From positions 1 through 34,596 of the IMG/VR virus record IMGVR_UViG_2541047860_000003: a DNA stretch of 34,596 bases; one strand, given 5' to 3'. The stretch is from a virus. Lineage: Duplodnaviria > Heunggongvirae > Uroviricota > Caudoviricetes. The notes beneath the pieces were generated by a model. It saw only the letters and a list, made by a program, of their open reading frames with translations, was not told the origin of the DNA and did no database searches. Positions 4,044-34,596 of this stretch are shown here, piece by piece; the stretch's first letter is position 1, and each line of letters begins with the position of its first letter. The position numbers and the translations under genes are program-made.

Positions 4044-4170
4044 TTTGTTCTCCACGTATATGCGCTGCACCGCGCTGAATTCTGGTAAAAAGAATCCCTC
4101 ACCATCCGGCGATTATTGAGTAAATTACGTTTCCATAAATGCCCCCGCAGGGGCATTTGCAGTAATGAAA

Positions 4171-4995: not shown

Positions 4996-5060
4996 AATAA
5001 GTCCTCACTATATAAAGATATTCAGTGATGAGATAAATAATCAGTTAATTAAAAACGATA

Positions 5061-6326: not shown

Positions 6327-6504
6327 CATCCTGTGATAAAACCGTGATTTCCTGATCCAGTTTTTTTAAGGAGTCTATTGTTTCCTGTCGATAAGACAGC
6401 ACTTCACGAAGCTGGTTTATAGCTGCCAGCTTCTTTGTCATCCACTCATAAATTTCCTCATCTGTGTAGCCAGGCGCGACGATTTTGGGTTCTGTTTTGT
6501 GCAT
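6298..6504 (-). CDS. Hypothetical 68-aa protein, first gene downstream of predicted PL
   Basis: ATG at 6504 preceded by GAGGAG with 7-nt spacer; predicted coiled-coil-like, not Arg-rich, so not an obvious N homolog. Confidence 0.45.
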   Translation of the reverse strand: MHKTEPKIVAPGYTDEEIYEWMTKKLAAINQLREVLSYRQETIDSLKKLDQEITVLSQDVTLDIVQTN

Positions 6505-6549
6505 TTCACATCTCCTCAAGTTATCAGTTACTTGTTGATGGGGACCAGA

Positions 6550-14169: not shown

Positions 14170-14341
14170 AAGTATGTCCTCATTCTAAGCCAACTGTCAC
14201 CGTGAGGTTTGGCAACGCCTGCTTTATTTTTCGTTTTAAGCTGTGTGGCAAAAAAATAATGGAAAAACAGATAAAAATCACTAACGCGGTCCGCATTTTC
14301 TAGATTACTGTGTTAAGAGTGGTTACTTCGCCACGCAGCTT

Positions 14342-14366
14342 AAACCCGCCGTCGAGCGGGTTTTGT
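14342..14366 (+). terminator. tR'-like terminator downstream of the presumed late promoter
   Basis: AAACCCGC-CGTCGA-GCGGGTTT followed by TTTGTC, about 150 bp upstream of the holin; PR' -35/-10 elements could not be placed with confidence. Confidence 0.45.
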
Positions 14367-14515
14367 CATTTCTGGGCCTTGGTATTCGTTGGGCTTGGTC
14401 TCTCTAGTACTTATCCATTGGCTCGGCTTCTTTTACGTTTCCGCTTCTGGTTTGCGGTTCGTGGTACTCCCTCAATTTGCACCTCCTGTATCGGCGAGGT
14501 GAGAGATAACTACAA

Positions 14516-14842
14516 ATGCCTCATAACCCAAATACTTGGCTGGAGTTGGTCCAGAGCTGGTGGCGTGGAGACACGCCGCTGGGCGCAGTAATTATGTCGA
14601 TCGTTATGGCTGGCTTGCGCATTGCCTATTTTGGCGGTGGTGGTGGCTGGAAGCGAAAAACGCTCGAGATTTTGCTCTGTGGCGCTCTGACACTGACTTT
14701 TGCATCCGCTCTTGAGTATGTCGGATGGCCTAAATCACTTTCTGTTGCCATTGGTGGTGGAGTGGGGCTGATCGGTGTCGATGCTATTCGTGGGGCAGCA
14801 ATGCGAGTAATCGGTAACAAATTTGGTGGCTCTAAGGAGTAA
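14516..14842 (+). CDS. Holin (lambda S-like topology)
   Basis: 108 aa with hydrophobic helices, a GGGGG turn and a charged C-terminus; immediately precedes the R-Rz-Rz1 genes. Confidence 0.6.
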   Translation: MPHNPNTWLELVQSWWRGDTPLGAVIMSIVMAGLRIAYFGGGGGWKRKTLEILLCGALTLTFASALEYVGWPKSLSVAIGGGVGLIGVDAIRGAAMRVIGNKFGGSKE

Positions 14843-14845
14843 TTT

Positions 14846-15322
14846 ATGCAGGTACTAAATTCCCAGCGTAAAGCTTTCCTTGATATGGTGGCTTGGTCAG
14901 AAGGAACGGATAACGGGCGACAACCGACACGTAACCACGGTTATGATGTTATTGTTGGTGGCAAACTGTTCACTGATTACTCCGATCACCCTCGCAAACT
15001 TGTCACGCTAAACCCCAAACTCAAATCAACAGCCGCCGGACGTTACCAGCTTCTTTCACGCTGGTGGGATGCCTACCGTAAGCAGCTTGCTCTGAAAGAC
15101 TTCTCTCCGAAAAGCCAGGACGCTGTGGCATTGCAGCAGATTAAGGAGCGTGGCGCTTTACCGATGATTGATCGCGGTGATATTCGTCAGGCAATTGACC
15201 GTTGCAGCAATATCTGGGCTTCACTGCCGGGCGCTGGTTATGGTCAGTTCGAGCATAAGGCTGACAGCCTGATTGCAAAATTCAAAGAAGCAGGCGGAAC
15301 GGTCAGAGAGATTGAGGTATGA
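14846..15322 (+). CDS. Endolysin, lambda R-type lytic transglycosylase
   Basis: 158 aa; [35 protein letters not shown]...[20 protein letters not shown] is near-identical to lambda R as I recall it. Confidence 0.9.
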
Positions 15323-15780
15323 GCAGAGTAACGGCGATTATTTCCGCTCTGGTTATCTGCATCATCGTTTGCTTGTCATGGGCTGTTAATCATTACCGCG
15401 ATAACGCCATTACCTACAAAGCCCAGCTCGACAAAAATGCCAGAGAACTGAAGCTGGCGAACTCGACAATTACTGACATGCAGATGCGTCAGCGTGATGT
15501 TGCTGCGCTCGATGCAAAATACACGAAGGAGTTAGCTGATGCGAAAGCTGAAAATGATGCTCTGCGTGATGATGTTGCCGCTGGTCGTCGTCGGTTGCAC
15601 ATCAAAGCAGTCTGTCAGTCAGTGCGTGAAGCCACCACCGCCTCCGGCGTGGATAATGCAGCCTCCCCCCGACTGGCAGACACCGCTGAACGGGATTATT
15701 TCACCCTCAGAGAGAGGCTGATCACTATGCAAAAACAACTGGAAGGAACCCAGAAGTATATTAATGAGCAGTGCAGATAG
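15319..15780 (+). CDS. Rz i-spanin
   Basis: N-terminal TM segment plus coiled-coil; close to lambda Rz; start overlaps the R stop. Confidence 0.85.
15539..15721 (+). CDS. Rz1 o-spanin lipoprotein (embedded in Rz, +1 frame)
   Basis: Lipobox LVVVGC followed by the Pro-rich [21 protein letters not shown] stretch characteristic of lambda Rz1. Confidence 0.8.
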
Positions 15781-15811
15781 CGCTGCCCATATCGATGGGC
15801 AACTCATGCAA

Positions 15812-16105
15812 TTATTGTGAGCAATACACCCGCGCTTCCAGCGGAGTATAAATGCCTAAAGTAATAAAACCGAGCAATCCATTTACGAATGTTTGCTGGG
15901 TTTCTGTTTTAACCACATTTTCTGCGCCGCCACAAATTTTGGCTGCATCAACAGTTTTCTCCTGTCCAATTCCCGAAACGAAGAAATGATGGGTGATGGT
16001 TTCCTTTGGTGTTACTGCTGTCGGTTTGTTTCCAACAGTAAACGTCTGTTGAGCACATCCTGTAATAAGCATTGCCAGAGCGGCAGAAAACAACATTTTT
16101 TTCAT
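15812..16105 (-). CDS. bor: Bor lipoprotein (serum-resistance moron)
   Basis: 97 aa from ATG at 16105 (AGGA SD); MKKMLFSAALAMLITGCAQQTFTV...EARVYCSQ matches lambda Bor. Confidence 0.85.
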   Translation of the reverse strand: MKKMLFSAALAMLITGCAQQTFTVGNKPTAVTPKETITHHFFVSGIGQEKTVDAAKICGGAENVVKTETQQTFVNGLLGFITLGIYTPLEARVYCSQ

Positions 16106-16285
16106 CTTATTATCCTGCATTGTTAAAAACGGCAGAATCCTATGTGACAACAATTAAACGATAGTTAAATGGATTGATGAAAATTAAAACTATATAGGTG
16201 TACGGTCAGACTATTGGAGGTAGTCAGGATTTGAATGTCAGTCTGTTGTCGGCATTCTGGCAATGCAATTTGGATAAAGCGGGGA

Positions 16286-19526: not shown

Positions 19527-20569
19527 TGTTCTTTTCGGGATTATTTCAACGAAAAAGTGACGCACCGGTGACCACGCCAGCAGAGCTGGCGGATGCCATC
19601 GGGTTGTCCTACGACACCTATACCGGAAAGCAGATCAGCAGCCAGCGGGCCATGCGACTGACGGCGGTTTTTTCCTGTGTCAGGGTGCTGGCAGAGTCGG
19701 TCGGGATGTTGCCCTGCAATCTGTATCACCTGAACGGCAGCCTGAAACAGAGAGCCACCGGCGAGCGTCTGCATAAGCTGATCTCCACGCATCCCAATGG
19801 CTATATGACGCCGCAGGAGTTCTGGGAGCTGGTGGTCACCTGTCTGTGCCTGCGGGGAAACTTTTACGCCTACAAAGTGAAAGCATTTGGCGAAGTGGCT
19901 GAACTGCTGCCCGTCGATCCCGGCTGTGTGGTACCGAAGCTTAACAGTAGCTGGGAGCCGGTCTATCAGGTCACATTCCCGGACGGCTCCACGGATGTAC
20001 TGAGCCAGGAAGATATCTGGCATGTGCGCACGCTGACGCTGGACGGTCTGGTGGGACTGAATCCCATCGCCTATGCCCGCGAGGCAATATCGCTGGCAGC
20101 TGCGACCGAAGAGCACGGGGCCAGACTGTTCAGCAATGGTGCGGTGACGTCCGGTGTGTTGCGTACAGAGCAGACGCTGTCGGATCAGGCTTATGAGCGC
20201 CTGAAGAAAGATTTTGAGGAGCGTCACACCGGGCTTGGCAATGCTCACCGCCCGATGATCCTTGAGATGGGGCTGGACTGGAAGTCGATGGCGCTGAACG
20301 CCGAGGACAGCCAGTTCCTGGAAACCCGCAAGTTTCAGCTTGAAGAAATCTGTCGTCTGTTCCGGGTGCCATTGCACATGGTGCAGAACACCGATCGCGC
20401 CACCTTCAACAATATCGAAGAGCTGGGGCTGGGATTTATCAACTATTCACTGGTGCCGTATCTGACCCGCATTGAGCAACGGATCAACACCGGACTGGTA
20501 CGAAAAAGTAAGCAGGGCGTTTATTACGCCAAATTTAACGCCGGGGCGTTACTGCGCGGGGATATGAAG

Positions 20570-21908
20570 CATAAGCGCTAACTTAAGGGTTGAACCATCT
20601 GAAGAATGCGACGCCTCGGTGCCTCGTTAAGACGATGCCTCGCGTTCTTCAATTGCGTTTTGTAGGCTGTCAGGGATACTGTCCCACGAATGGCCACCTG
20701 TAAGCTCCAGATGACCATTTTTGTTATTCTCCACAACGAGTTAGTTCTTCTTTTCGGATCCGGCACTTCTGGGGGGGAAATCCAGCGATGGCTGGATTAT
20801 GTCGTCAATTAAAAATGCGGCGAGTAGATTAGCAAATATCCACGCTTTCGCGAGTTCAGGTTCCTTTGCACGCAAAGCATCCAGGTGCAGCAAACTTTTG
20901 AGCCGCTTAAAAGCCAGTTCAATTTGCCATCGCAGACGGTAACAATCAGCCACTTGCTCTGCTGAATATTCATCTTCCGGTAATGATGTTAGCAATAGCA
21001 CATGGCCCGCTGCTTCCAGCGTTTCCGCCTGAACTACTCGTCCTTTTCGACGATTCTCGCTGAGCAGTCGGGTTTTACTGATTAATGCTTTTTCGGGAGG
21101 AAGTGATACGGCAATGAGACGTGCCGGAAAGGGAGCTCCGGCTTTTTTATTACCTGAATTGCCTATCATTACAGTGGTTTCACCGTTCTTACCGCAATCC
21201 AGCCCGCGCAGAAAACCCATCATGTCAAAGCGCATTCCTTCTGCAGTTAACCAGCGCAATCCTCGCCAGTGAACCCGGACGATATAATCAGCTTCTCCAA
21301 AAGCAAGTGAGCGGATACATTCGGGACGCGAACCGAATCCCCGGTCAGCAATGCGTATCTCGTCTGCCGTTTGCGCAAATCGGTCCAGCCGTTCAGCGTC
21401 TCTGCTGTCGGTTAGCTCAAAATCAGTGAACTGACAGGTATGAGGATCATATCCCATATGTAGTCGCCATTCAGCGCTGCCGCCCCCGGGCGCACTGATT
21501 GCTGTTCCATCGACAAGACGCAATCTCTTTCCGCTTGTACAACCCGTAACTGCGGCGCGTACAGCAAGTGTTTGTGCGGCAAGTATGCCAAACCAGTCGG
21601 CGGCATTCCGCAGCCGCTTCAGGAGAGCCACGTCAGATAATGTTGCAACGTCATGGAGCTGAGCCCATGCAGTGACTTCACGTAATGACATCCCCCCGGG
21701 GCCGTAAGCCAGCCCCAGACGTAGCAGAGTTGCAGCATCACGAATTTCGCGGCGGCGGGTTAGAGCCCCGGCATTACGTGCCGAAGTATCCAGTTCTTCG
21801 GGCTTACCAATATGGGCCAGAATTGCTGACCAGTTATCGTGAGAGTAATTCATCGGCACGTTAAATCATATCAGGCGTAATACCACAACCCTTAAGTTAG
21901 CGCTTATG
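20570..21908 (-). mobile_element. IS186 (IS4 family), complete copy
   Basis: Perfect 23-bp terminal inverted repeats CATAAGCGCTAACTTAAGGGTTG / CAACCCTTAAGTTAGCGCTTATG; flanked by 10-bp direct duplication GGATATGAAG (20560..20569 and 21909..21918). Confidence 0.9.
20741..21859 (-). CDS. insL: IS186 transposase
   Basis: 372-aa ORF; translation NYSHDNWSAILAHIGKPEELDTSARNAGALTRRREIRD... matches the IS186 transposase as I recall it. Confidence 0.9.
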   Translation of the reverse strand: MPMNYSHDNWSAILAHIGKPEELDTSARNAGALTRRREIRDAATLLRLGLAYGPGGMSLREVTAWAQLHDVATLSDVALLKRLRNAADWFGILAAQTLAVRAAVTGCTSGKRLRLVDGTAISAPGGGSAEWRLHMGYDPHTCQFTDFELTDSRDAERLDRFAQTADEIRIADRGFGSRPECIRSLAFGEADYIVRVHWRGLRWLTAEGMRFDMMGFLRGLDCGKNGETTVMIGNSGNKKAGAPFPARLIAVSLPPEKALISKTRLLSENRRKGRVVQAETLEAAGHVLLLTSLPEDEYSAEQVADCYRLRWQIELAFKRLKSLLHLDALRAKEPELAKAWIFANLLAAFLIDDIIQPSLDFPPRSAGSEKKN

Positions 21909-22093
21909 GGATATGAAGTCCCGTTTTGAAGCCTACGCCACCGGGATCAACTGGGGAATTTACTCTCCCAATGACTGCCGCGACCTGGAAGATATGAATC
22001 CGCGTCCCGGTGGTGATGTTTATCTCACACCGATGAACATGACCACGAAACCCTCCGATGGCAGTAAAGCCGGTAAGCAGAAGGATAACGCCA

Positions 22094-22758: not shown

Positions 22759-23964
22759 ATGGCGGTTGATATTAAAGATGTCGAACAGGTCGCGCAGGAG
22801 CTGCAGCAGAAGTTTGACGACTTCAAAGCAAAGAACGACAAGCGCGTGGATGCGATTGAGCAGGAAAAAGGCAAACTTGCCGGGCAGGTGGAAACCCTGA
22901 ACGGGAAACTCAGCGAGCTGGAAAACCTCAAAAGCGATCTTGAAAAAGAGCTGCTTGAGCTGAAACGTCCGGCAGGTGGTGCGCAAAATAAACTGGCCAC
23001 CGAGCATAAAGAGGCGTTTGTGGGCTTCCTGCGTAAAGGCCGTGAAGACGGTCTGCGCGATCTGGAGCGTAAGGCATTGCAGGTGGGCACCGATGAAGAC
23101 GGTGGCTACGCCGTGCCGGAAGAACTGGATCGCAACATTCTTAACCTGCTGAAAGATGAAGTGGTGATGCGTCAGGAAGCCACGGTGATCACCGTTGGTG
23201 GTTCCGACTACAAAAAACTGGTGAATCTGGGCGGCACGGCTTCCGGATGGGTTGGCGAGACTGACGCGCGCTCCCAGACTGCCACCTCAAAACTGGGGCT
23301 GATTGAACCTTTCATGGGGGAAATCTACGGTAACCCGCAGGCCACCCAGAAAATGCTGGATGATGCCTTTTTCAACGTGGAGGCCTGGATCAACAGCGAG
23401 CTGGCAACCGAATTTGCCGAACAGGAAGAAATTGCCTTTACCACCGGCGATGGTACCAAGAAGCCGAAAGGGTTCCTGGCGTATGAATCCACGGATGAAA
23501 CCGATAAGGTCCGGGCGTTCGGCAAACTTCAGCATATTGTATCCGGCGACGCGACTGCGGTGACCGCAGACGCCATTATCAAACTGATTTACACGCTGCG
23601 AAAGGCACACCGCACTGGCGCGAAGTTCATGATGAACAACAACAGCCTGTTTGCCATCCGTCTGCTGAAAGACACCGAGGGTAACTATCTGTGGCGTCCG
23701 GGGCTGGAACTGGGGCAGCCGTCCTCTCTGGCGGGTTACGGTATCGCTGAAAACGAACAGATGCCGGATATCGCCGCTGATGCGAAAGCCATTGCATTTG
23801 GTAACTTCAAACGGGGTTACACCATCGTTGACCGTATCGGCACCCGCATTCTGCGTGACCCGTACACCAATAAACCGTTTGTCGGTTTTTATACCACCAA
23901 GCGCACCGGCGGGATGCTGGTCGATTCGCAGGCCATCAAACTGCTGAAGATTGCAGCGGCGTAA
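22759..23964 (+). CDS. Major capsid protein (HK97 fold)
   Basis: 401 aa with N-terminal coiled-coil scaffold-like delta domain then capsid core; follows the protease. Confidence 0.85.
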   Translation: MAVDIKDVEQVAQELQQKFDDFKAKNDKRVDAIEQEKGKLAGQVETLNGKLSELENLKSDLEKELLELKRPAGGAQNKLATEHKEAFVGFLRKGREDGLRDLERKALQVGTDEDGGYAVPEELDRNILNLLKDEVVMRQEATVITVGGSDYKKLVNLGGTASGWVGETDARSQTATSKLGLIEPFMGEIYGNPQATQKMLDDAFFNVEAWINSELATEFAEQEEIAFTTGDGTKKPKGFLAYESTDETDKVRAFGKLQHIVSGDATAVTADAIIKLIYTLRKAHRTGAKFMMNNNSLFAIRLLKDTEGNYLWRPGLELGQPSSLAGYGIAENEQMPDIAADAKAIAFGNFKRGYTIVDRIGTRILRDPYTNKPFVGFYTTKRTGGMLVDSQAIKLLKIAAA

Positions 23965-23971
23965 TCACTCA

Positions 23972-23998
23972 GGGGCGCGGAACCGCGCCCCCTGTTCT
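23972..23998 (+). terminator. Hairpin downstream of the capsid gene (partial terminator)
   Basis: GGGGCGCGG-AAC-CGCGCCCC followed by TGTTCTG. Confidence 0.4.
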
Positions 23999-24013
23999 GA
24001 CGGGTGAAGAATC

Positions 24014-24214
24014 ATGATCCTGAAACAAGATCTGAAATGGTCACCGGACGGTATGCGTGTTGAGGTCATTCGGGCCGGTGAGTATGACGACGGGGCGCTT
24101 CCTGCCCGGGTGCAGGAGATTGCACTTCAGGCCGGGTTAGCAGAGCGCGGAACCAGTGCAAAAAGCAGTAAAGCGGCAAAAGAGAAAAAAGCCACGACCA
24201 GTAAAGAGGGCTGA
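24014..24214 (+). CDS. Hypothetical small head-module protein
   Basis: 66-aa ORF with Lys/Ala-rich tail; weak RBS. Confidence 0.3.
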   Translation: MILKQDLKWSPDGMRVEVIRAGEYDDGALPARVQEIALQAGLAERGTSAKSSKAAKEKKATTSKEG

Positions 24215-24216
24215 GT

Positions 24217-24540
24217 ATGCTTCTGACAATGGAAGAGATTAAAGCCCAACTCCGGCTGGATGAGGATTTCGATGCTGATGACCGCCATCTGCAACTGCTG
24301 GCCTGTGCGGCGCAAAAGCGGACGGAAACGTATCTGAACCGGAAGCTCTATGCACCGGATGAAACCATTCCGGACAGCGATCCGGACGGGCTGCACCTGT
24401 CGGATGATATTCGTCTGGGGATGCTGATGCTTATCAGCCATTTTTACGAAAACCGCTCTTCGGTTACGGAAGTGGAGAAACTCGACATGCCGCAGAGTTT
24501 TGGCTGGCTTGTCGGCCCGTATAGGTACTTTCCGCAATGA
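24217..24540 (+). CDS. Head-tail connector (gp6-like)
   Basis: 107 aa; position after capsid and translational coupling to the next gene; family by recollection. Confidence 0.55.
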   Translation: MLLTMEEIKAQLRLDEDFDADDRHLQLLACAAQKRTETYLNRKLYAPDETIPDSDPDGLHLSDDIRLGMLMLISHFYENRSSVTEVEKLDMPQSFGWLVGPYRYFPQ

Positions 24541-24947
24541 AAATTCGTCAGGCGCAGACCAGCGCAACCTACATTCTGCCGGACCCCGGCGAACTGAATA
24601 AACGCGTCCTGATCCGCCAGCGGGTGGATATGCCCGCGGATAACTTTGGCGTGGAGCCTCAATACCCGGTTGCGTTCCGGGCATGGGCGAAGGTTGTCCA
24701 GACCAGTGCCACCACCTGGCAGGAAACCGCGCAGACCGGAGACGCCATCACCCATTACATCACCATTCGCTACCGCCGGGGGATCACCGCTGATTATGAG
24801 GTGGTCTGCGGTGACAGTGTGTACCGGGTGAAACGTCAGCGCGATCTGAACGGGGCGCGGCGCTTTCTGCTGCTGGAGTGTACGGAACTGGGCGAATTTA
24901 CGCAGAGTCACGGAGGCAGCAATGGCGACTCCCTTTTTTCACGTTGA
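24537..24947 (+). CDS. Head closure / head-tail adaptor protein
   Basis: Position and size within the head-completion block. Confidence 0.45.
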   Translation: MKIRQAQTSATYILPDPGELNKRVLIRQRVDMPADNFGVEPQYPVAFRAWAKVVQTSATTWQETAQTGDAITHYITIRYRRGITADYEVVCGDSVYRVKRQRDLNGARRFLLLECTELGEFTQSHGGSNGDSLFSR

Positions 24948-25428
24948 TGTTCAGCAGCCCGCGGAGATGCGCTTTAACCGCGCACGTGTCCGGCGGGCGT
25001 TTGTCACGATTGGGCAGCGTCATATGCGTGATGCCCGTCGGCTGGTGATGCGCCGTGCGCGGTCGGCACCGGGTGAAAACCCCGGTTATCAGACCGGACG
25101 CCTGGCTCGTTCGATTGGTTACATGGTGCCGAGAGCCAGTAAAAAGCGAGCCGGTTTTATGACACGCATTGCCCCTAACCAGCGCAACGGGAAGGGGAAC
25201 CGGATGATCTCTGGTGACTTCTATCCGGCGTTTCTGTTTTTTGGTGTCCGGGGAGGAGCAAAACGTCGTCGTAGTCATCATCGTGGTGCATCCGGTGGCA
25301 GCGGCTGGCGGCTGGCTCCACGTAATAACTTTATGGTGGAAACTCTTGAAAAGAACCGCAGCTGGACACGCTATTTTCTGGCGCGGGAATTGCGTAAATC
25401 ACTGAAGCCGGAGCGACGACACAGATGA
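24922..25428 (+). CDS. HK97 gp10-like neck protein
   Basis: Position; basic, Arg-rich 168-aa ORF. Confidence 0.45.
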   Translation: MATPFFHVDVQQPAEMRFNRARVRRAFVTIGQRHMRDARRLVMRRARSAPGENPGYQTGRLARSIGYMVPRASKKRAGFMTRIAPNQRNGKGNRMISGDFYPAFLFFGVRGGAKRRRSHHRGASGGSGWRLAPRNNFMVETLEKNRSWTRYFLARELRKSLKPERRHR

Positions 25429-25985
25429 AACTGACGCCTGTTATTGCTGCGCTGCGTGCCCGCTGCCCGTATTTTGAAAACCGGGTGGCAGGCGCGGCAC
25501 AGTTCAAAAATCTGCCGGAGGTCGGAAAGCTGAGACTCCCGGCGGCGTATGTGGTACCGGGTGATGACTCTCCGGGAGAAAACAAAAGCCAGACCGACTA
25601 CTGGCAGGAGCTGAAAGAGGGCTTCTCCGTGGTTGTCATACTGAGTAACTGGCGTGATGAGCGCGGTCAGTTTGCCTCGTATGATGTGGTGGACGATGTC
25701 CGGCAGATGCTCTTTAAGGCCCTGCTGGGCTGGAACCCGGAAGCGTGCGGTAACCCGATTACCTATGACGGCGGCACGCTGCTGGATCTGAATCGTCATG
25801 AGCTGATTTATCAGTTCGATTTTTCGGTCATCAGCGAGCTGACTGAAGACGATACCCGCCAGCAGGATGAGCTGAACAGTCTGGATGAACTGCGAACGCT
25901 GGCGATTGATGTTGATTATCTCGATCCCGGTAACGGGCCTGACGGCGATATCGAACATCACACCGAAATAACCCTTCCTTCCTGA
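25425..25985 (+). CDS. Putative tail terminator / neck protein (Mu gpK-like position)
   Basis: 186-aa ORF immediately upstream of the small ORF and sheath. Confidence 0.4.
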   Translation: MKLTPVIAALRARCPYFENRVAGAAQFKNLPEVGKLRLPAAYVVPGDDSPGENKSQTDYWQELKEGFSVVVILSNWRDERGQFASYDVVDDVRQMLFKALLGWNPEACGNPITYDGGTLLDLNRHELIYQFDFSVISELTEDDTRQQDELNSLDELRTLAIDVDYLDPGNGPDGDIEHHTEITLPS

Positions 25986-25993
25986 GGATCATC

Positions 25994-26164
25994 ATGTTTG
26001 TGAAACCTGTTAAAGGGCGGTCGGTACCTGACCCTGCCCACGGCGACCTTTTGCCCGCCGAGGGGCGAAATGTTGATGAGAACAACTACTGGCTGCGCCG
26101 TGAAGCAGTGGGTGATATCCGGCGCGTGAATGAAAAGGTGAATACCGATGACGATAAGCTTTAA
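25994..26164 (+). CDS. Small protein preceding tail sheath (DUF2635-like)
   Basis: 56-aa ORF MFVKPVKGRSVPDPAHGDLLPAEGRNVDENNYWLRREAVGD... with GAGGA SD; small ORFs of this kind precede Mu-type sheath genes. Confidence 0.35.
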   Translation: MFVKPVKGRSVPDPAHGDLLPAEGRNVDENNYWLRREAVGDIRRVNEKVNTDDDKL

Positions 26165-27644
26165 CACCATTCCGTCGAATACGCTGGTTCCGCTGTTTTA
26201 TGCGGAAATGGATAACTCGGCGGCGAATACTGCACAGGACAGCGGAGCATCACTGCTGATTGGTCATGCCAATAACGGTGCAGAGATTGTTGCCAACAGT
26301 CTGGTGCTGATGCCGTCGGCAGACTATGCACGTCAGATTTGTGGTGCGGGAAGTCAGCTGGCGCGTATGGTCGAGGCTTATCGCCAGACCGACCCGTTTG
26401 GTGAGCTGTATGTGATTGCCGTTCCTGAATCCACGGGCGCGGCGGCAACGGTTACGCTGACGGTGACCGGGGCGGCAACCGAAACCGGCACGGTAAATGT
26501 TTATGTGGGACGTACCCGCGTGCAGGCACCGGTGACCAACGGCGATAACGTCGCGACGATTGCCAGCAGTATCAAGGATGCCATCAATGCCGTTCCGGCT
26601 CTGCCGTTTACGGCCTCATCTTCGGCAGGCGTGGTCACGCTGACCGCGCGTCATAAGGGGCTTTGCGGGAATGAAATTCCTGTCAGCCTCAATTACTACG
26701 GCTTTGGTGGGGGCGAAGTGCTGCCAGCGGGCGTACAGATTGCCGTGGCGGCGGGGACCGCCGGAACGGGCGCTCCTGTTCTCACCGGCGCGGTGGCTGC
26801 AATGGCGGATGAGCCGTTTGATTATATCGGTCTGCCGTTCAACGACACTGCCTCCGTTAACACGCTGGTGACCGAGATGAACGATACCAGCGGTCGCTGG
26901 AGCTATGCGCGTCAGCTGTATGGTCATGTGTATACGGCAAAGATCGGCACGCTGTCAGAACTGGTGACCGCAGGTGATCAGTTTAACCAGCAGCACATTA
27001 CCCTGGCGGGGTACGAAAAAGAGACCCAGACGCCTGCCGACGAGCTGGCGGCAAGCCGTACCGCCCGCGCAGCGGTGTTTATTCGCAACGATCCGGCACG
27101 TCCCACGCAGACCGGTGAGCTGGTGGGTATGCTGCCTGCGCCGAAGGGGAAACGGTTCACGATGACCGAACAACAGACCCTGCTGTCTCATGGCGTGGCA
27201 ACGGCGTATGTCGAAAGCGGGGTACTACGCATTCAGCGTGATGTCACCACGTACAGGAAAAACGCTTACGGGGTTGCGGATAACAGCTACCTCGACAGTG
27301 AGACGCTGCATACCAGCGCGTATGTACTGCGCAAACTGAAATCCGTCATTACCAGTAAGTACGGGCGTCACAAGCTTGCCAGTGACGGTACCCGCTTTGG
27401 TCCCGGTCAGGCGATTGTCACCCCGGCGGTGATCAAAGGGGAACTGCTGGCAACCTACCGTCAGCTTGAGCGTGCGGGGATCGTGGAAAACTACGAACTG
27501 TTTAAGCAGTACCTGGTTGTGGAGCGTGATGCCAGCGATCCGAACCGCCTGAACACGCTGTTCCCGCCTGACTATGTTAACCAGTTGCGTGTCTTTGCCG
27601 TGGTTAACCAGTTCCGTCTTCAGTATTCAGAGGAGTCTGCATAA
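26148..27644 (+). CDS. Contractile tail sheath protein (Mu gpL-like)
   Basis: 498 aa; N-terminus FNTIPSNTLVPLFYAEMDNS resembles the Mu L sheath N-terminus; followed by a tube gene. Confidence 0.8.
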   Translation: MTISFNTIPSNTLVPLFYAEMDNSAANTAQDSGASLLIGHANNGAEIVANSLVLMPSADYARQICGAGSQLARMVEAYRQTDPFGELYVIAVPESTGAAATVTLTVTGAATETGTVNVYVGRTRVQAPVTNGDNVATIASSIKDAINAVPALPFTASSSAGVVTLTARHKGLCGNEIPVSLNYYGFGGGEVLPAGVQIAVAAGTAGTGAPVLTGAVAAMADEPFDYIGLPFNDTASVNTLVTEMNDTSGRWSYARQLYGHVYTAKIGTLSELVTAGDQFNQQHITLAGYEKETQTPADELAASRTARAAVFIRNDPARPTQTGELVGMLPAPKGKRFTMTEQQTLLSHGVATAYVESGVLRIQRDVTTYRKNAYGVADNSYLDSETLHTSAYVLRKLKSVITSKYGRHKLASDGTRFGPGQAIVTPAVIKGELLATYRQLERAGIVENYELFKQYLVVERDASDPNRLNTLFPPDYVNQLRVFAVVNQFRLQYSEESA

Positions 27645-28000
27645 TGGCCCGTATCGGGGGAACCTGTTATTTCAAAATTGACGGTCAACAGCTATCGCTG
27701 ACCGGCGGCATTGAGGTGCCCATGAACAGGACGGTCAATGATGACATCATCGGCCTGGACGGTTCAGTGGACCGCAAGGAAACTCACCGTGCGCCTTATG
27801 TCAAAGGGACTTTCAAGGTGCCGAAGAATTTTCCGGTGAACAAAATCACCTCGTCTGATGAGATGACTATCACTGCCGAGCTGGCGAACGGTCAGGTCTA
27901 TGTACTGTCGTCTGCCTGGCTGCACGGCGAAGCGAACCATAATGCCGAAGAAGGTACGGTTGATCTTGAGTTCCACGGTGAAGAAGGGGATTACCAGTAA
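27644..28000 (+). CDS. Tail tube protein
   Basis: 118 aa directly after the sheath, start overlapping the sheath stop. Confidence 0.7.
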   Translation: MARIGGTCYFKIDGQQLSLTGGIEVPMNRTVNDDIIGLDGSVDRKETHRAPYVKGTFKVPKNFPVNKITSSDEMTITAELANGQVYVLSSAWLHGEANHNAEEGTVDLEFHGEEGDYQ

Positions 28001-28269
28001 TGAAAGAGCTTGAGTTAAAGAAACCGATTACTGCTCATGGCGAGACACTCTCCGTACTGGAGTTTGATGAGCCTACCGGGAAGGATGTCCGCGAGCTGGG
28101 GTATCCCTACCAGATGAATCAGGATGAGTCCGTCAGACTTCTGGCGCATGTGGTGTCGAAATACATTGTGCGGCTGGCGAAAGTGCCGCAAAGCTCTGTC
28201 GACCAGATGTCTCCGGCAGACCTGAATGCAGCGGCGTGGCTTGTGGCTGGTTTTTTCCTCCAGGCCTGA
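28000..28269 (+). CDS. Tail assembly chaperone (G-like)
   Basis: 89 aa after the tube; the slippery heptamer T_TTT_TTC sits in its last codons, allowing a -1 shift into the following frame. Confidence 0.55.
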   Translation: MKELELKKPITAHGETLSVLEFDEPTGKDVRELGYPYQMNQDESVRLLAHVVSKYIVRLAKVPQSSVDQMSPADLNAAAWLVAGFFLQA

Positions 28270-29783
28270 CGGCTGAATACCTCACTGATCGCTTCTTTGA
28301 CTGCGCCAGCTACTGGCGCATTAATCCCTTCGAATTGCTGAATTTGCCGTTCAGTAAAGTTGGAGCGAAAGCGCGGATTGCCAGGGTGCTCGATAAGCAT
28401 GGTCTTGTCGGTGATTATCGCGATGTGACCCGATATAGCATTGCCTCTGGTTATCCTTTCGACGGTGATGAGGTGACCGCCGAAATGGCAGAGTGTGAAA
28501 ACCTGTTTTCTGTGCCGGTTGACGTAATGATCACAAAGGTACAGGAAGATAAAGTCAGTGGCGTAGAGGTCGTAAAGGCGTGGAAATCTCTGCCTACCGC
28601 CGAAAATATCCAATGGGTATTTGAGCGCATCGGAGCCATGCCCGCTCGTAACATGATGTCGGCAAAAATTGAGCTTCTCAGCCTGGACGGCTGCAACTCT
28701 GGTGTTAGCGAGGTATCAGCGACCAGCCAGTTATTGAGCGAGTGCGCTCGCCGTGGAGTTCCCGACAAGAACTACGCAGCACACCTGGAATCAATCGCAG
28801 AACGCAATGCGTTTCACCCCATCAATGAGATTCTCAAATTCCGGCAATGGGATGGCAAAAACCGCGTTGCTGATGTGCTAGGCGCTATCAAGACTGATGA
28901 TGACCCATATTCTCATCAAATCCTGCTGAAATGGCTGGCTGGCGCGATTTGCGCCATTGATAGCGGCAGCGTGGCTATTAAGTTTTGCCCGGTCATTCAT
29001 AGCAAGGCCAACAACTGGTACAAGTCGCAGCTACCGGAGCGCCTGTTTAATCTGGTTGAAGGTGCTTTTGGTGGCGCTATCGGCATCCCGGAGCCATCGA
29101 ACAAAGACGACCTGATGAAATCAATTAGCGCCTGGTGTTATGAATTTGGCGAACTGGCTGGAATGACTAAGCGTGACGCAGAGGCTATCAAAAGCTTTAT
29201 CCCGATGAGTGAGGATATTTTCCGGTTGCCGTATGGCCGGTGTAATCTTTCCAAGCCGCGTCAGACGGTGTACATCGGCACAACTAACCGTGATGACTTC
29301 ATTCATGATGAGACAATCGCTACACGCTTCCCGGTTATTAAGCTCGCCTCACCGATTGACATCGAGCGTATCAATAAAGCACTTGGCTACGAGTTCGACG
29401 GCAACAGGGCCGTACTGACTGACCGCGAACAACTGATCCAATTCTGGCTTGAGGTTCGCCAGATGGTTGCAGACGGCCTTAATTACGTTATTGACGGTGA
29501 GTTGCTGGCTATTACCAGAGGGAAGAACAAAGAGTTCGAGTCGAGAACCAGCTATGACACCACGCTGCTTGATACGCTGGCGATGCACGATGGCCGCACA
29601 TATCAGACCACAACGCAGATATGCAATGAAATCGGCGTGCCGGTTGATAAGCGAGTACATGTGGGCAGGGCTCTCAACAAGCTTTCGGATAATGGTGTTA
29701 TTGAAAAGAAAGTGACAGGTGGAGTGGCTTACTACACCTTCCCCACGCGGGTTAACTATTTACCAACCCGAAATCCCGAATAA
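28236..29783 (+). CDS. VirE-like protein with degenerate P-loop and C-terminal winged helix; N-terminus continuous with the chaperone -1 frame (possible fusion)
   Basis: 515-aa ORF; central region ...KSFIPMSEDIFRLPYGRCNLSKPRQTVYIGTTNRDDFIHDETIATRFPVIKL resembles the VirE / primase C-terminal family, but the Walker A position reads HSKANNWYKS; C-terminal 60 aa are similar to the C-terminus of the 118-aa protein at 30441..30797. Confidence 0.45.
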   Translation: MACGWFFPPGLTAEYLTDRFFDCASYWRINPFELLNLPFSKVGAKARIARVLDKHGLVGDYRDVTRYSIASGYPFDGDEVTAEMAECENLFSVPVDVMITKVQEDKVSGVEVVKAWKSLPTAENIQWVFERIGAMPARNMMSAKIELLSLDGCNSGVSEVSATSQLLSECARRGVPDKNYAAHLESIAERNAFHPINEILKFRQWDGKNRVADVLGAIKTDDDPYSHQILLKWLAGAICAIDSGSVAIKFCPVIHSKANNWYKSQLPERLFNLVEGAFGGAIGIPEPSNKDDLMKSISAWCYEFGELAGMTKRDAEAIKSFIPMSEDIFRLPYGRCNLSKPRQTVYIGTTNRDDFIHDETIATRFPVIKLASPIDIERINKALGYEFDGNRAVLTDREQLIQFWLEVRQMVADGLNYVIDGELLAITRGKNKEFESRTSYDTTLLDTLAMHDGRTYQTTTQICNEIGVPVDKRVHVGRALNKLSDNGVIEKKVTGGVAYYTFPTRVNYLPTRNPE

Positions 29784-29799
29784 CCAGAACACAATCCAA

Positions 29800-29824
29800 C
29801 CCTGCTACGGCAGGGTTTTTTTTG
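29800..29824 (+). terminator. Strong intrinsic terminator
   Basis: CCCTGC-TACG-GCAGGG followed by nine T residues. Confidence 0.75.
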
Positions 29825-29920
29825 CCTCGTGATCGTGACTGCTTAGCCAGAAAAGGTCAAAAGAAAGCCACTGGAAAGAAAGTCAAAACCGGCCCCTGCT
29901 ATCCCGCCGCGCTCAGGTGG

Positions 29921-30265
29921 GGTACTCCACCTACTCCCCCTACTGATGTTACTCCACCTTGTTACTCCACCTGTTTAACTGAATGATATTAAATAAGAAA
30001 AACCAAAAGGTGGAGTAGGTGGGGTAAAAAGCCGCAAAAACTCCAGAGATTTAATCAGCGGTAAAAATACAACCACCTATGGGCTATATACTACTTATCT
30101 AATTAAATAATAATTATATATAAAGTTACTCCACCTACTCCCCCTAAAGAAAATAAAGTTAAATATAAACAATATGTTAGCTCATAAAAGGCATTTAATT
30201 TACCCCCCCTTTTACCCCACCTTTACTCCCCCTATGAAACTTACCCCCCCTGATTTACCCCACCT
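29921..30265. repeat. Iteron array with AT-rich region (putative plasmid-type origin)
   Basis: At least 12 copies of the 10-mer TAC(T/C)CC(A/C)CCT in both orientations (29921..29972 direct, 30007..30025 inverted, 30126..30145, 30198..30265) around an AT-rich stretch at 30060..30180. Confidence 0.6.
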
Positions 30266-30385
30266 GATGCAGGAATCTAGCAGGAAAGTTGATAGAAAAG
30301 GCATTTTGTATTTGCGGAAGTGGTATGTAGACGATCCGCTTTCTTTTCCCAGTGGCTTACTTCCACTATCTCTGCAATTCGCTCG

Positions 30386-30414
30386 CGTAGTCTGATGTTG
30401 GTATAATGAACCAT
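30386..30414 (+). promoter_or_regulatory. Sigma70-type promoter with extended -10 (TGgTATAATGAACC)
   Basis: GTTGGTATAATGAACC about 30 bp upstream of the 118-aa gene; near-identical to GGTGGTATAATGAACC at 31973..31988. Confidence 0.5.
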
Positions 30415-30440
30415 ATAACCAACAATGCAGAGATGCGACG

Positions 30441-30797
30441 ATGACCAATGAAACAAAGGCTTTCACGGTACGAATTCCCGCAGTCGTTTATCAGGCAATT
30501 GCTGAACGGGCAAAAAATGAAGGCCGGTCACTCAGCTACATGGTGAGCAATGCGCTCTGCGCGTTCGCTGGCATTGATGACGCCCAGGATGATTACGAAA
30601 CGCTTTTGCTTGAGGCAGTTAATACCGGGTCAAATATAAGGGCGCAGACAGTGACGGAAATTTGCAGCGTTATCGGTGTGGATGCTGCCAGGCGGATTCA
30701 TGTAGGCAAGGCATTGCGAAAACTGGCAAGTGGCGGAGCGGTAGTCATGCGGAACCGCAGCGGGTGCAGAGTCTATAAATTTCCTTCTAGCGTATAA
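30441..30797 (+). CDS. RHH (CopG-like) N-domain plus winged-helix C-domain regulator
   Basis: N-terminal KAFTVRIPAVVYQAIAERAKNEGRSLSYMVSNALCAF is ribbon-helix-helix-like; C-terminus similar to that of the 515-aa protein. Confidence 0.5.
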   Translation: MTNETKAFTVRIPAVVYQAIAERAKNEGRSLSYMVSNALCAFAGIDDAQDDYETLLLEAVNTGSNIRAQTVTEICSVIGVDAARRIHVGKALRKLASGGAVVMRNRSGCRVYKFPSSV

Positions 30798-31024
30798 TGG
30801 GCAACATGAACAAATTCGACAGAGTGAAACGCCTTGAAGCGTTCAAGCCAAAGCAGCATGAAGCTGTTCTATCAATTCTCCGGGAGCGTGCTGACATGCC
30901 GTCAGGCAATGCCGGGGAATGCGTGTTTGCCATTCTCATGAAGAAATATGCTTCGGCACAGCAAAAGCCCGCAGGTATCCAGGCGTCCGGCGGGGAAAAT
31001 TCTTTTCTTCCAGTGGCTAATTGA
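30797..31024 (+). CDS. Hypothetical 75-aa protein
   Basis: ORF start overlaps the preceding stop (TAATGG); no motif recognised. Confidence 0.3.
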   Translation: MGNMNKFDRVKRLEAFKPKQHEAVLSILRERADMPSGNAGECVFAILMKKYASAQQKPAGIQASGGENSFLPVAN

Positions 31025-31056
31025 CAGAATAACCCAACGGCAAAGTTGAGGCGTGT

Positions 31057-31512
31057 ATGAAAGACAATACCGTAAATGACGCACCTGATAACGAGCAGCC
31101 CGATATCGAACGTGATAAGCGGGGGCGGTTTACTAAGGGGCAATCAGGAAACCCATCAGGGCGAACCAGAAAGGAGCGCCAGTTATTAACAATGATGGGT
31201 GATGATGCTGACAGCGTGGCGCAAATCGTCATTGATGCGGCAAAGGGCGGTGACATGCAGGCTTGCCGCTTGGTACTTGAAAGGGTGCTTCCCGTCCGCA
31301 AGGCCAGATATGAGGCCGTAGAGTTTGAAATTGATGACACCACACTTGCAGGCTCTGCAAAGTCAATTCTTGCAGCTGTAGCAGGTGGAGATCTGCCACC
31401 AGACGTGGGCGCAATGCTTCTCCAATCAGTAGCTCAAACGGCGAAGATTATCGAGATTGACGAACTTGAGCGGCGAATCGCAGCACTGGAGAAAGGCAAT
31501 GAAACTGAATAA
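31057..31512 (+). CDS. DUF5681-like protein
   Basis: N-terminal KRGRFTKGQSGNPSGRTRKER motif recalled for DUF5681-type plasmid/phage proteins. Confidence 0.4.
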   Translation: MKDNTVNDAPDNEQPDIERDKRGRFTKGQSGNPSGRTRKERQLLTMMGDDADSVAQIVIDAAKGGDMQACRLVLERVLPVRKARYEAVEFEIDDTTLAGSAKSILAAVAGGDLPPDVGAMLLQSVAQTAKIIEIDELERRIAALEKGNETE

Positions 31513-31954
31513 ACGGCTTGAAGCTCTGGAGCAGCGTAGGCCCACGAAGAAGGGCGCAGAGGCTCTCACCGATGAAGAGCTGGCCGCAGCTATCGCCAGG
31601 TTTACACCGGAAGAGATCCGCGCAGCAGAACGGGAGTTATTGCTATGGTTAGGTTAACGCGACGCCTTGAGGTTCTGGAGGAGCAGAGACAGCGTCAGCA
31701 ACCGAAGATCGATTTCCCGCTATATACCATCATTGACAAGCCATCTATACAGACACCCCGCAAGCACTCATTTTCCAATCCTCCCGCTTATCTCTTGGTG
31801 AACTCCTGAAACGAAAAAGCCCCCACATTTCTGTAGGGGCCGTTTCGTCAATCTGCGTTTGATGGTCGGAAGGATGGCCGACAACCTAATTATGCACCGG
31901 CCTGTAAAAATGTACCAGCCTTAAATACAGAAAATCGTAAAAACTTAATCACGA

Positions 31955-31990
31955 TTTTCCGTAAATCATTAACGGTGGTATAATGAACCG
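31955..31990 (+). promoter_or_regulatory. Promoter with extended -10 plus palindromic operator
   Basis: ACAGAAAATCGTAAAAACTTAATCACGATTTTCCGT palindrome followed by GGTGGTATAATGAACC, upstream of the 134-aa gene. Confidence 0.45.
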
Positions 31991-32005
31991 TCAATCCTTC
32001 TTTTA

Positions 32006-32410
32006 ATGGTGATAGCGATGAACGAAGTAGATTCAATTCTGGCCGAGCAGAAAAGAGCCGCAGAACAACGCCGCTTGGCTAATGAGAAGAAGCGCCATCC
32101 ATCCGGCCTGTACGATGCGGGTGATGGGTGGTATGTGAAGCAAATCGAAGAGCTTCACTCCCCGCTGGGTCTCAGTAAGGTGGTTCTGGTAAGCCCTGAT
32201 GATGTTTGTGTGAGATATCAGCGCCAATATGGCAAAGCACTCACCACTGACAAATTGAAGGAATGGAGCAGGGACGGGAACTTCCCGTTGCCGCGCTCTA
32301 TTAATGGGGTTATCGGTTGGGAATCGAATGTTGTGACCAATGGCCTGAATGAACTGAGCAAAGCAGCCGGTCGCGGCTTTACCTGTATCACTCGAGGATT
32401 CGCACGATGA
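32006..32410 (+). CDS. Hypothetical 134-aa protein
   Basis: ORF downstream of the promoter/operator; no motif recognised. Confidence 0.35.
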   Translation: MVIAMNEVDSILAEQKRAAEQRRLANEKKRHPSGLYDAGDGWYVKQIEELHSPLGLSKVVLVSPDDVCVRYQRQYGKALTTDKLKEWSRDGNFPLPRSINGVIGWESNVVTNGLNELSKAAGRGFTCITRGFAR

Positions 32411-32613
32411 GCAAAGAATCTGTAATCGCGGCATTGAAAAAAGCGCGTGAAGCGCGTGAAGGCAATATCTTCGGTGGTACTGGGCAGGCCGAATTTAACA
32501 AAGATTTTTATGCTGGCCGCGCCACCAAAACAGATGGTGTCAGTAAGACCGACAGTAACGAGCCGATGAACCAAAAGGCATTTAATGCCCGGTTCTACTC
32601 CGGTAAAGGCTGA
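32407..32613 (+). CDS. Hypothetical 68-aa protein
   Basis: Start overlaps the previous stop (ATGA); Lys/Gly-rich. Confidence 0.3.
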   Translation: MSKESVIAALKKAREAREGNIFGGTGQAEFNKDFYAGRATKTDGVSKTDSNEPMNQKAFNARFYSGKG

Positions 32614-32708
32614 TTATAGGCAATCGGGCATATCGCAATTGCTGCCCGACTGTTTGGATTGTGACTGTTGAGAAATAGACGCAATTCCGCAATTACAGAA
32701 AATCGCAT

Positions 32709-32933
32709 TTACTTATTTCCGTATTTCTCCATTAGTAACTCTCTAACCTCATCGGCAATCTTTGCTCCTCTCTCTGCTGTTTGCATCTTGATGGCACGGT
32801 GCAAAGATTCAGGGATATCAATCGTCAGGCGCTTCATTTTTTCCGTTTCTTCTGGCGCTGTTACGCGGTCACTAATCCAGGCGTCTGCTGATGCTGGCGT
32901 TGGTTTTTTGCCAATTGAAATCTTCTTGCTCAC
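32709..32933 (-). CDS. ParG-like RHH centromere-binding protein
   Basis: 74 aa; GTG start overlapping the parA stop; C-terminal KRLTIDIPESLHRAIKMQTAERGAKIADEVRELL is ribbon-helix-helix-like. Confidence 0.55.
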   Translation of the reverse strand: MSKKISIGKKPTPASADAWISDRVTAPEETEKMKRLTIDIPESLHRAIKMQTAERGAKIADEVRELLMEKYGNK

Positions 32934-33559
32934 TTCATTATCTCCAGCAGTTCATTAATCAGGTTCTCAATCTCTGCAACAGCCTGGCTGTTAGCGTCTA
33001 CCTCATGCAGAGCTTTACCACTCGCCGCAGCCTCTGCGAATATCACTCGCTGGGTTATTGCAGTTTGCAATGTTGGGATGTCATAAGCGGCTAAAGCCTC
33101 GCGAACATCACGCCCAATAGCTGTATTTGCGATTTTACGATTAATCACAAAACATGATTTGATGTTTTCTTTAAATACAGAAGCCTCAGCAATGAGTTTT
33201 ACTATCTCATCGGCGGCCCATATGTCATATGGTGATGGTTGAACCGGTATAAGCACCGCATCGGATGCCATGATTGCAGAACGTGCCAGGTCAGTGACTC
33301 GCGGGGCACTATCAATTACAACATGGTCATAGCCTTTCGCCAGTTCCTGAACCTCTTTATGAATTGTGGCGCGGGGAAGCCCAACGACAGAGAATAATGG
33401 TTCCCCATCTCTCGCCGCCTGCCAATCTAACGCGCTCCCTTGCGGGTCTGCATCGAGCAGCAGCACCCGGCAGCCTCTCCGGGCAAGGCTTGCCGCAACG
33501 TTCACAGAAAGCGTTGTTTTACCCACTCCGCCTTTTTGATTCAGTACGCCAATTATCAT
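32930..33559 (-). CDS. parA: ParA-type partition ATPase (small type Ib)
   Basis: Deviant Walker A MIIGVLNQKGGVGKTT..., LLDADPQGS, 209 aa. Confidence 0.85.
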   Translation of the reverse strand: MIIGVLNQKGGVGKTTLSVNVAASLARRGCRVLLLDADPQGSALDWQAARDGEPLFSVVGLPRATIHKEVQELAKGYDHVVIDSAPRVTDLARSAIMASDAVLIPVQPSPYDIWAADEIVKLIAEASVFKENIKSCFVINRKIANTAIGRDVREALAAYDIPTLQTAITQRVIFAEAAASGKALHEVDANSQAVAEIENLINELLEIMK

Positions 33560-33703
33560 GTCGACCTCTATCCAGTTTTGGCCAGATGGTACAGAAAATC
33601 GTAAAAACTTAAAAGCGTATCTTCTAATTTACAGATGAATAATCCTGTTAAATACACGCGGCAGCCCTCGTTTTTTCGTCCAGTGGCCATATTAGCGGGC
33701 CAT

Positions 33704-33735
33704 TTGACATGGCTTCAAAACGGCTTCAAAATGAT
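33704..33735 (+). promoter_or_regulatory. Sigma70-like promoter with direct-repeat operator
   Basis: TTGACA at 33704..33709, 17-bp spacer containing GGCTTCAAAA twice, then CAAAAT; upstream of the RHH gene. Confidence 0.4.
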
Positions 33736-33756
33736 GCCATAACCATAGGGGGATTT

Positions 33757-33915
33757 ATGCCAACACCAAAACCGAAAACCATCACATTCAGGCTTTCAGA
33801 TGAACTACTGGAAGATCTTAAGCGCCTTGCCGACGATGAAGGACGCTCTATTAATTCGATGCTCACGGAGTTGGTGAAGCGAGCCGCTAAAAAGCAGGAT
33901 GGCGAAAGTAAATGA
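33757..33915 (+). CDS. Small RHH (CopG/Arc-type) DNA-binding protein
   Basis: 52 aa from internal ATG; KTITFRLSDELLEDLKRLADDEGRSINSMLTELV is an RHH signature. Confidence 0.5.
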   Translation: MPTPKPKTITFRLSDELLEDLKRLADDEGRSINSMLTELVKRAAKKQDGESK

Positions 33916-34337
33916 GAAAAACACTCCTGGCATTAATCGTTATCTTGGGGTCAGTTTGGAGATCGGAAATTTCTGTACGTTAAGCGCATTATTTAACCAA
34001 TCTTGGTTCGTAAGGGGTTGATTTTGCGTCAGTGGCTATCGCTTTTAAGTTGTCGCTCTTGCAGTATCGCATTTAGGTTATCCGATTAAGGTCAAACCTC
34101 TGAAAATGCCGTATAGCGCGGGAGTACACCCTATTGCGATAGCGCGATCTGTTCAAAAAACAGGCTTAACGTACAATAATTTCCGATCTCCAAACTCACC
34201 CCTTATTCACGCTGGCCAACCTGTTTCGGGCGGACCAAATGATACGTCAGTGGGAGAGATCTCACTAAAAACTGGGGATAGCGCCTTAAATGGCGAAGAA
34301 ACGGTCTAAATAGGCTGATTCAAGGCATTTACGGGAG

Positions 34338-34596
34338 GGTGATGCTGCCAACTTACTGATTTAGTGTATGATGGTGTTTTTGAGGTGCTCCAGTGGCTTC
34401 TGTTTCTATCAGCTGTCCCTCCTGTTCAGCTACTGACGGGGTGGTGCGTAACGGCAAAAGCACCGCCGGACATCAGCGCTATCTCTGCTCTCACTGCCGT
34501 AAAACATGGCAACTGCAGTTCACTTACACCGCTTCTCAACCCGGTACGCACCAGAAAATCATTGATATGGCCATGAATGGCGTTGGATGCCGGGCA
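34338..34596 (+). mobile_element. IS1 left end (partial, continues beyond window)
   Basis: Starts with the IS1 terminal repeat GGTGATGCTGCCAACTTACTGATTTAGTGTATGATGG and continues into insA; matches IS1 from memory. Confidence 0.9.
34393..34596 (+). CDS. insA: IS1 InsA (5' portion, truncated by window end)
   Basis: GTG start; translation [68 protein letters not shown] matches IS1 InsA. Confidence 0.85.

Follow-up and report, generated by a model that had tools for sequence, protein, structure and literature searches.

The window, the whole 34,596-bp stretch of viral DNA analysed here, ends inside an IS1 copy that we read as a deletion junction between a defective prophage and rclC, a gene of the chromosome, and the plasmid-like block to its left was in this reading captured via the attachment site of its own integrase; we give this reading a probability of roughly 80%. 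The terminal segment (34338-34596, plus strand) comprises positions 1-259 of the 768-bp element and is of the IS1A type. BLAST comparison with the fetched loci gave 259 matches in 259 positions to the IS1A copy carried by E. coli C10, a perfect match too long to be due to chance, and the coordinates given in the initial annotation were thus exact. The left inverted repeat (GGTGATGCTGCCAACTTACTGAT, 34338-34360) is identical in the C10 IS1A copies, and the right inverted repeat of the family is visible past the scaffold gap described below. The 5' part of insA runs from a GTG at 34393 to the end of the window, and the corresponding gene call in the source scaffold carries the Pfam domains Zn_ribbon_InsA/HTH_Tnp_IS1 (PF03811/PF12759). 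The sequenced parts fit the family layout of insA followed by insB' with a programmed -1 frameshift in an element of approximately 768 bp, of which the central 265 bp, including the frameshift site, are unsequenced. The 8-9-bp direct target duplication of a simple insertion is missing, the left flank being TTACGGGAG (IS5) and the right flank GTCTTCTGG (rclC). Its absence is attributed to a deletion after insertion and tells of what happened to this copy later, without calling its assignment to the IS1 family into question: the feature at 34338 is the left end of an ordinary IS1A insertion sequence.

The right side of IS1 was recovered from the source assembly. A lookup of the exact window ParA protein returned at least 10 genomic contexts, one of which, scaffold KE701069.1 (GCA_000459435.1, locus L006), aligned to window positions 22930-34596 with 100% identity in one alignment that spans the IS5/IS1 junction. 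One nucleotide past the window end, this scaffold continues with 165 N, which explains why the window stops inside IS1. After the N run follow IS1 positions 526-768 and then rclC' (GTCTTCTGGGTGTTC...), an rclC gene without its C-terminal part, and further rclB, rclA, rclR, and ykgE-H. The sequenced IS1 parts (260 + 243 nt, positions 1-260 and 526-768) match one 768-bp IS1A copy of C10 exactly, leaving 265 nt missing from the middle where the 165 N stand; the adjacency of the two halves rests on read-pair scaffolding across a multicopy repeat. Extension to the right, as the initial annotation had proposed, therefore located the other IS1 end abutting rclC' with no target duplication. The sequences flanking the element (AGGCATTTACGGGAG on the left, GTCTTCTGGGTGTTC on the right) are unrelated, IS5 versus rclC, and contain no 9-bp duplication; a simple IS1 insertion with its own duplication was not seen, as the copy lies between an IS5 fragment and rclC'.

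The prophage-element fusion of the window recurs at 99.98-100% identity in the complete genome of E. coli C10 and in a further contig (L013). Directly to the left of the IS1 position, both have 2,378 additional bp, made up of the tail of an IS5, a gene for an alpha/beta-hydrolase, and a complete IS5. In C10, the IS5 fragment runs 83 bp further to the IS5 end and is followed by CTAG, the alpha/beta-hydrolase gene, and a complete IS5 without its last 4 bp; IS1 then follows in the same orientation with an identical IS1|rclC' junction. Compared with C10, the window has lost exactly the 2,378 bp that abut the left end of IS1. This DNA was present in seven further contexts of the element among those listed, so its absence from the window is the derived state. 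Since C10 and L013 have the identical phage-block junction with no IS1 at the position it occupies in the window, the IS1 junction of the window postdates the capture of the block. GCA_038072665.1 is among the assemblies that share the phage-element junction. The alpha/beta-hydrolase (Peptidase_S9; WP_113446103.1) gene lies between the IS5 3' fragment and the full IS5 in direct orientation (positions 13739-16116 of the C10 locus L001, and in loci L004-L013). The hydrolase segment is what is left of an IS5 composite unit, which accompanies the element in every listed context but the window. C10 is further rearranged to the left of its prophage, with an IS1 replacing the DNA equivalent to window positions 1446-6513, and has to be taken as a relative, not as the literal ancestor. 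Between thrW and the phage it carries approximately 20 kb of IS1/IS5-bounded segments (L018 1812-22802, 257-278 kb), which include ttr genes, an encapsulin/Dyp peroxidase pair, and formate dehydrogenase. Two IS1 copies in direct orientation enclose the C10 prophage remnant itself.

The same IS1|rclC' junction was found in the complete genome of E. coli GDSC2227PM with a different left flank, a tail-fibre assembly gene located approximately 1.2 kb downstream of a 345-bp match (94.5% identity) to the SfI baseplate/tail-fibre region. Strain NCCP12480 carries a simple IS1 insertion in an otherwise intact rclC, at the same rclC position and with a 9-bp duplication (GTCTTCCGG); this copy is a divergent isoform with 42 mismatches to the type in the window. 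NCCP12480 was considered as the ancestral rclC::IS1 state and dropped because of these 42 differing positions, and it shows only that the site is an IS1 target; its copy may represent an independent hot-spot insertion rather than an ancestor. IS1 was observed at this rclC position in several unrelated E. coli (L020 6304-7089 in NCCP12480, L019 6313-7080 in GDSC2227PM, L001 16117-16884 in C10), and this recurrence suggests either that the position is a hot spot for IS1 insertion or that one isoform has been converted to another. The combination of a junction that is fixed on one side, a variable other side, and the missing duplication is the signature of an IS-anchored adjacent deletion. The IS5/IS1 junction of the window gave no match in an exact-pattern scan of species-representative genomes, and when a 160-bp query covering it was run on 5,426 complete E. 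coli genomes, all matches came in two pieces that do not span the junction.

IS1 had been proposed to bound the plasmid-like segment. This part of the initial annotation did not hold, as 434 bp intervene between the block end (33903) and IS1, composed of 43 bp, a 256-bp MITESen1, and a 135-bp IS5 fragment. The IS5 3' fragment (34203-34337, plus strand) corresponds to approximately IS5 positions 977-1112, is 98.5-99.3% identical to IS5 copies, and is cut on the left by MITESen1 and on the right by IS1. MITESen1, a Tn3-derived inverted-repeat miniature element (TIME), occupies 33947-34202 on the minus strand; its inverted arms (33947-33999 and 34150-34202) are 83% complementary over 53 nt. The assignment is based on Tn3-family terminal repeats and on an ungapped match at 243 of 256 positions (94.9%) to the MITESen1 listed in Table S2 of PMC13367494. 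The element was matched in 4,303 plasmid records. The window copy is not flanked by a 5-bp direct repeat (ATCTT versus TTATT); copies without direct repeats are also reported in the same source (PMC13367494). As one side of the window copy is internal IS5 sequence, this boundary is a rearrangement junction rather than a clean insertion. NZ_CP063501.1, an unrelated E. coli plasmid of 12.6 kb, has an identical MITESen1|IS5-fragment junction at 5169-5644. The copy in the window is chromosomal, and the element is reported as very rare on chromosomes. The flanks of the outer IS5 end were compared in five contexts and all read TTAG or TTAA, the IS5 target, which fits IS5-made junctions on that side.

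The left part of the window carries the prophage. ARAGORN placed a tRNA-Thr (CGU) gene, thrW, at 1369-1444 (plus strand), the attachment site of SfI/SfV-like prophages, between proA (1-1254) and the phage integrase (1459-2622, minus strand). The proA-thrW region is 100% identical to C10, and the attP-int-xis region is 97.7% identical to SfI. An assignment of the 417-aa open reading frame at 1-1254 to icd, and of the prophage to e14, was overturned by the C10 comparison and the tRNA scan, which placed the left flank at proA-thrW. With this placement, a plain deletion suffices for the rclC junction and no complex rearrangement is needed. Relatives of the prophage at 96.7-98.9% DNA identity also include Escherichia phage SKA5, and according to the annotation of the SfI record, the attP core of SfI resembles the cores of SfII, SfV, and SfX. 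The phage homology stops at 28342 in the tail assembly chaperone extension, approximately 70 bp before the start of the SfI tape-measure gene, and the prophage is a dead remnant. The IS186 noted in the portal gene is real (20570-21907, minus strand), and an 11-bp target duplication (GGGATATGAAG, 20559-20569 and 21908-21918) marks it as a simple insertion. The portal gene of C10 is uninterrupted, with BLAST blocks that overlap by 11 bp; the empty site in this near-identical prophage identifies IS186 as a recent simple insertion.

The plasmid-like block (28343-33903, plus strand, 5.56 kb) is one uninterrupted stretch of an integrative plasmid-like element of 13 kb. It is collinear with the circular S. 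flexneri plasmid NZ_CP055032.1 (13,291 bp), running from plasmid position 2201 to 1 and from 13291 to 9934 at 97.2-97.7% identity, and encodes a vapE-type helicase/primase, a DUF5681 protein, ParA, and an Arc/RHH protein according to PHROG/Pfam hits. The suspicion that it was foreign to the phage was borne out, since SfI/SfV-type relatives have the tape-measure gene in its place, a circular plasmid of 13.3 kb matches the block at 97% identity, and further copies lie outside phages. NZ_CP055032.1 and the complete element copy of locus L004 carry a Phage_integrase gene, which the window lacks. No relative of the 13-kb element was found in the phage collection, and within this search no family name for it was found.

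Phage and block are fused directly at 28342/28343, with neither an IS nor an IS remnant at the junction. The second IS that the initial annotation had proposed to look for at this place is therefore lacking, and its further suggestion, that the block may have been captured by IS-mediated recombination, is not supported, as the junction falls within the 7-bp attP crossover region that was also used at the metH attB and at caiC. Alignments of attP, K-12 attB, L004, SfI, and caiC sequences delimited a hybrid attachment site (phage pseudo-attB x element attP, no strand assigned) at 28321-28364, with the crossover inside GAATTTG (28340-28346). In L004 (GCA_019178395.1, 2289-15229), the complete 13-kb element including the Toprim and integrase genes lies between metH and yjbB with plasmid positions 2197-2211 at both ends. 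A 15-bp core, CAAATC(C/T)GTCACTTT, is shared by both ends of this copy and the K-12 attB (L014); written as CAAATC(C/T)GTCA(C/T)TTT, the common core was recovered from the plasmid, the K-12 metH-yjbB spacer, and each of the two L004 ends (CAAATCTGTCACTTT in the spacer versus CAAATCCGTCA(T/C)TTT in the plasmid). The L004 ends and the K-12 spacer together define attP, a primary attB downstream of metH, and the crossover inside CAAATC. The attP core overlaps the likely vapE start codon (AAAATGACGGATTTG).

The block starts at the same nucleotide next to caiC in strain 2017-02-1CC and in loci L005 and L008, and the phage and caiC junctions lie in the same 7-bp region as the primary crossover. The native targets resemble the P' side of attP at 15/22 (SfI) and 14/22 (K-12 caiC) positions; the SfI site reads GAATTGCTGAATATGCCGATCAGTG, and a search of 24 kb of SfI on both strands found no more than two places that reach 14/18. 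In strain 2017-02-1CC (L002 7744 and 16110; L015), an element fragment replaces the caiC N-terminus, caiB, caiA, caiT, and the fixA N-terminus. The left junction of this fragment is a pseudo-att site sharing TTTGCCGT, and the right junction is the IS5 end at CTAA in fixA; there, integration would have been followed by an IS5-made deletion from the outer IS5 end to CTAA in fixA, just as IS5/IS1-made deletions would have extended to rclC in the phage case. Capture of the block was probably integrase-mediated, with IS activity only trimming its right side later; catalysis by the integrase at the secondary sites is suggested by junction position and sequence similarity. Because the block has an identical left end in the phage and caiC settings, a transposon end had also been considered there, and no Tn3-type or IS5-type terminal repeat was recognized at 28343 by eye. 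One-ended Tn3-family transposition from MITESen1 was rejected because the same end recurs across contexts and coincides with the att core. The fusion created a chimeric open reading frame of 515 aa (28236-29783, plus strand), in which 36 codons of the phage tail-assembly-chaperone extension are in frame with vapE; phrog_32181 was hit by residues 6-42 and helicase/primase PHROGs by residues 115-459. RefSeq labels this open reading frame in C10 as an ordinary VapE domain protein.

From these comparisons we infer the following order of events. An SfI/SfV-like phage would have lysogenised at thrW. A 13-kb integrative plasmid-like element already carrying MITESen1, the IS5 fragment, the hydrolase gene, and a full IS5 would then have been inserted by its tyrosine integrase into a secondary site in the tail-assembly-chaperone extension, just upstream of the tape-measure gene. 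IS-mediated deletions may subsequently have taken the integrase/toprim half of the element and the distal tail genes, together with the right end of the prophage and the chromosome up to rclC::IS1, giving the state seen in C10 (IS5 lacking 4 bp, IS1, rclC'). In the window lineage, a further 2,378 bp would have been lost at the left end of IS1, leaving the order IS5 fragment, IS1, rclC'; the most likely mechanism is intramolecular transposition of IS1, that is, an adjacent deletion. The fixed anchor of the deletion would be a single complete 768-bp IS1 originally inserted in rclC, with its right end still at the original rclC target (GTCTTCTGG...) and its left end joined to DNA progressively further to the left. 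The IS-mediated remodelling of the locus postulated in the initial annotation is thus supported, with IS1 as a deletion junction.

The last deletion could also have occurred by RecA-dependent recombination between the rclC copy and a second, directly oriented IS1 inserted in the IS5 fragment, with loss of the 2,378 bp and one IS1. The genomes are rich in IS1 (32-40 matching places per record), several copies lie within 30 kb in C10, and the loss of target duplications through recombination between IS copies has been documented (PMC11708052). The end product alone is the same for both mechanisms, so the final sequence fits either; however, the recombination route takes two events versus one, and its intermediate, with IS1 in the IS5 fragment and the hydrolase gene retained, is absent from the 5,426 complete E. 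coli genomes. Because one event suffices and no intermediate was found in these genomes, adjacent deletion is preferred, and recombination between IS1 copies is considered possible but unlikely. It is very unlikely that the IS1 is instead a new simple insertion in the IS5 fragment with a 9-bp duplication and that the connection to rclC was produced by mis-scaffolding over the repeat. Such an error is conceivable given that the centre of IS1 is an N gap, that IS1 is multicopy, and that scaffolders err at repeats, but the contig following the gap opens with the IS1|rclC' junction that is found 2.4 kb downstream in the complete C10 genome. In addition, the gap size (165 N versus 265 bp missing) fits a single IS1, and the scaffold coordinates fit the chromosomal neighbourhood from proA-thrW to rcl-bet.

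The deletion reading leaves the origin of the block to the attachment site, and here the alternative to be weighed is that the block was brought in by IS-mediated recombination as an IS-flanked composite or cointegrate, with IS1 at 34338 as one boundary. IS1, IS5, and MITESen1 all lie to the right of the block, pieces of the element are IS1-bounded in other genomes (e.g., L009 and L010), and the whole prophage remnant of C10 is enclosed by its two direct IS1 copies. The L009 and L010 pieces retain an intact attP and indicate that IS-mediated movement of element DNA also occurs, though not at 28342/28343. There, the junction carries no IS and matches, to the nucleotide, the attP crossover point that also served at the primary attB and in caiC, the identical phage-block junction is found in genomes that have no IS1 at this position, and the far flank of IS1 is rclC, not plasmid or phage DNA. 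An IS at both ends of the block with a duplication outside them, as in a composite transposon, was not observed. IS-mediated capture is therefore regarded as extremely improbable, and entry by the element's own integrase is retained.

All parts of the locus, namely IS1A, IS5, IS186, MITESen1, an SfI/SfV-type prophage, and a tyrosine-integrase element, are of described kinds; as far as searched, only the IS5-fragment/IS1 junction and a name for the 13-kb element were not met elsewhere. The relevance lies mainly in correct annotation: an assembly gap within a repeat sets the end of the window, a dead prophage remnant appears to be joined to rclC by an IS1-anchored deletion, and the plasmid-like DNA represents part of an integrative element whose own attachment site was probably the route of entry. 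From the recurrent IS1 site in rclC, deletions of varying extent appear to have removed the thrW-rclC interval in several E. coli lineages. The locus further serves as a worked example of how integrase-made and IS-made junctions can be told apart, and documents a chromosomal copy of MITESen1. That the 13-kb element is an uncharacterised integrative plasmid or satellite-like element whose recurrent hits at the tail-assembly-chaperone/tape-measure site disable a resident or helper phage of the SfV type is a highly speculative proposal to which we attach very little credence; if true, the IS-anchored deletions seen here would represent decay following such a phage-disabling integration.

Mechanistically, no difference was seen between the IS1 in the window and known IS1-promoted adjacent deletions or IS-anchored nested deletions. 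In the long-term evolution experiment with E. coli, deletion-associated IS150 copies had no target duplications, and IS150-adjacent deletions were often small initially and grew over time (PMC11708052); the IS1 studied here shares the missing duplication with these copies. What is particular is its left endpoint inside the IS5 fragment, which is absent from the 5,426 complete E. coli genomes. The prophage resembles SfI, SfII, and SfV with 96.7-98.9% DNA identity in the integrase, terminase-to-capsid, and sheath-to-chaperone regions and uses the same tRNA-Thr site. Unlike in these phages, the tape-measure gene and all that follows it (baseplate, fibres, gtr, attR) are missing, and the portal gene is split by IS186. 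The miniature element agrees with MITESen1, which is abundant on enterobacterial plasmids, in its length of 256 bp and in its Tn3-type GGGG...ACGTTAAG terminal repeats, and differs in that its right end abuts an internal IS5 position. The 13-kb element behaves like lambda-type tyrosine-integrase elements with secondary sites in having a circular form, a primary attB, and exact hybrid junctions, and its secondary sites resemble one half of the core, as in secondary-site integrative elements. It is set apart from known integrative elements by combining ParA/Arc partition, Toprim, VapE replication, and an integrase within 13 kb, and by an attP core that overlaps the start of vapE.
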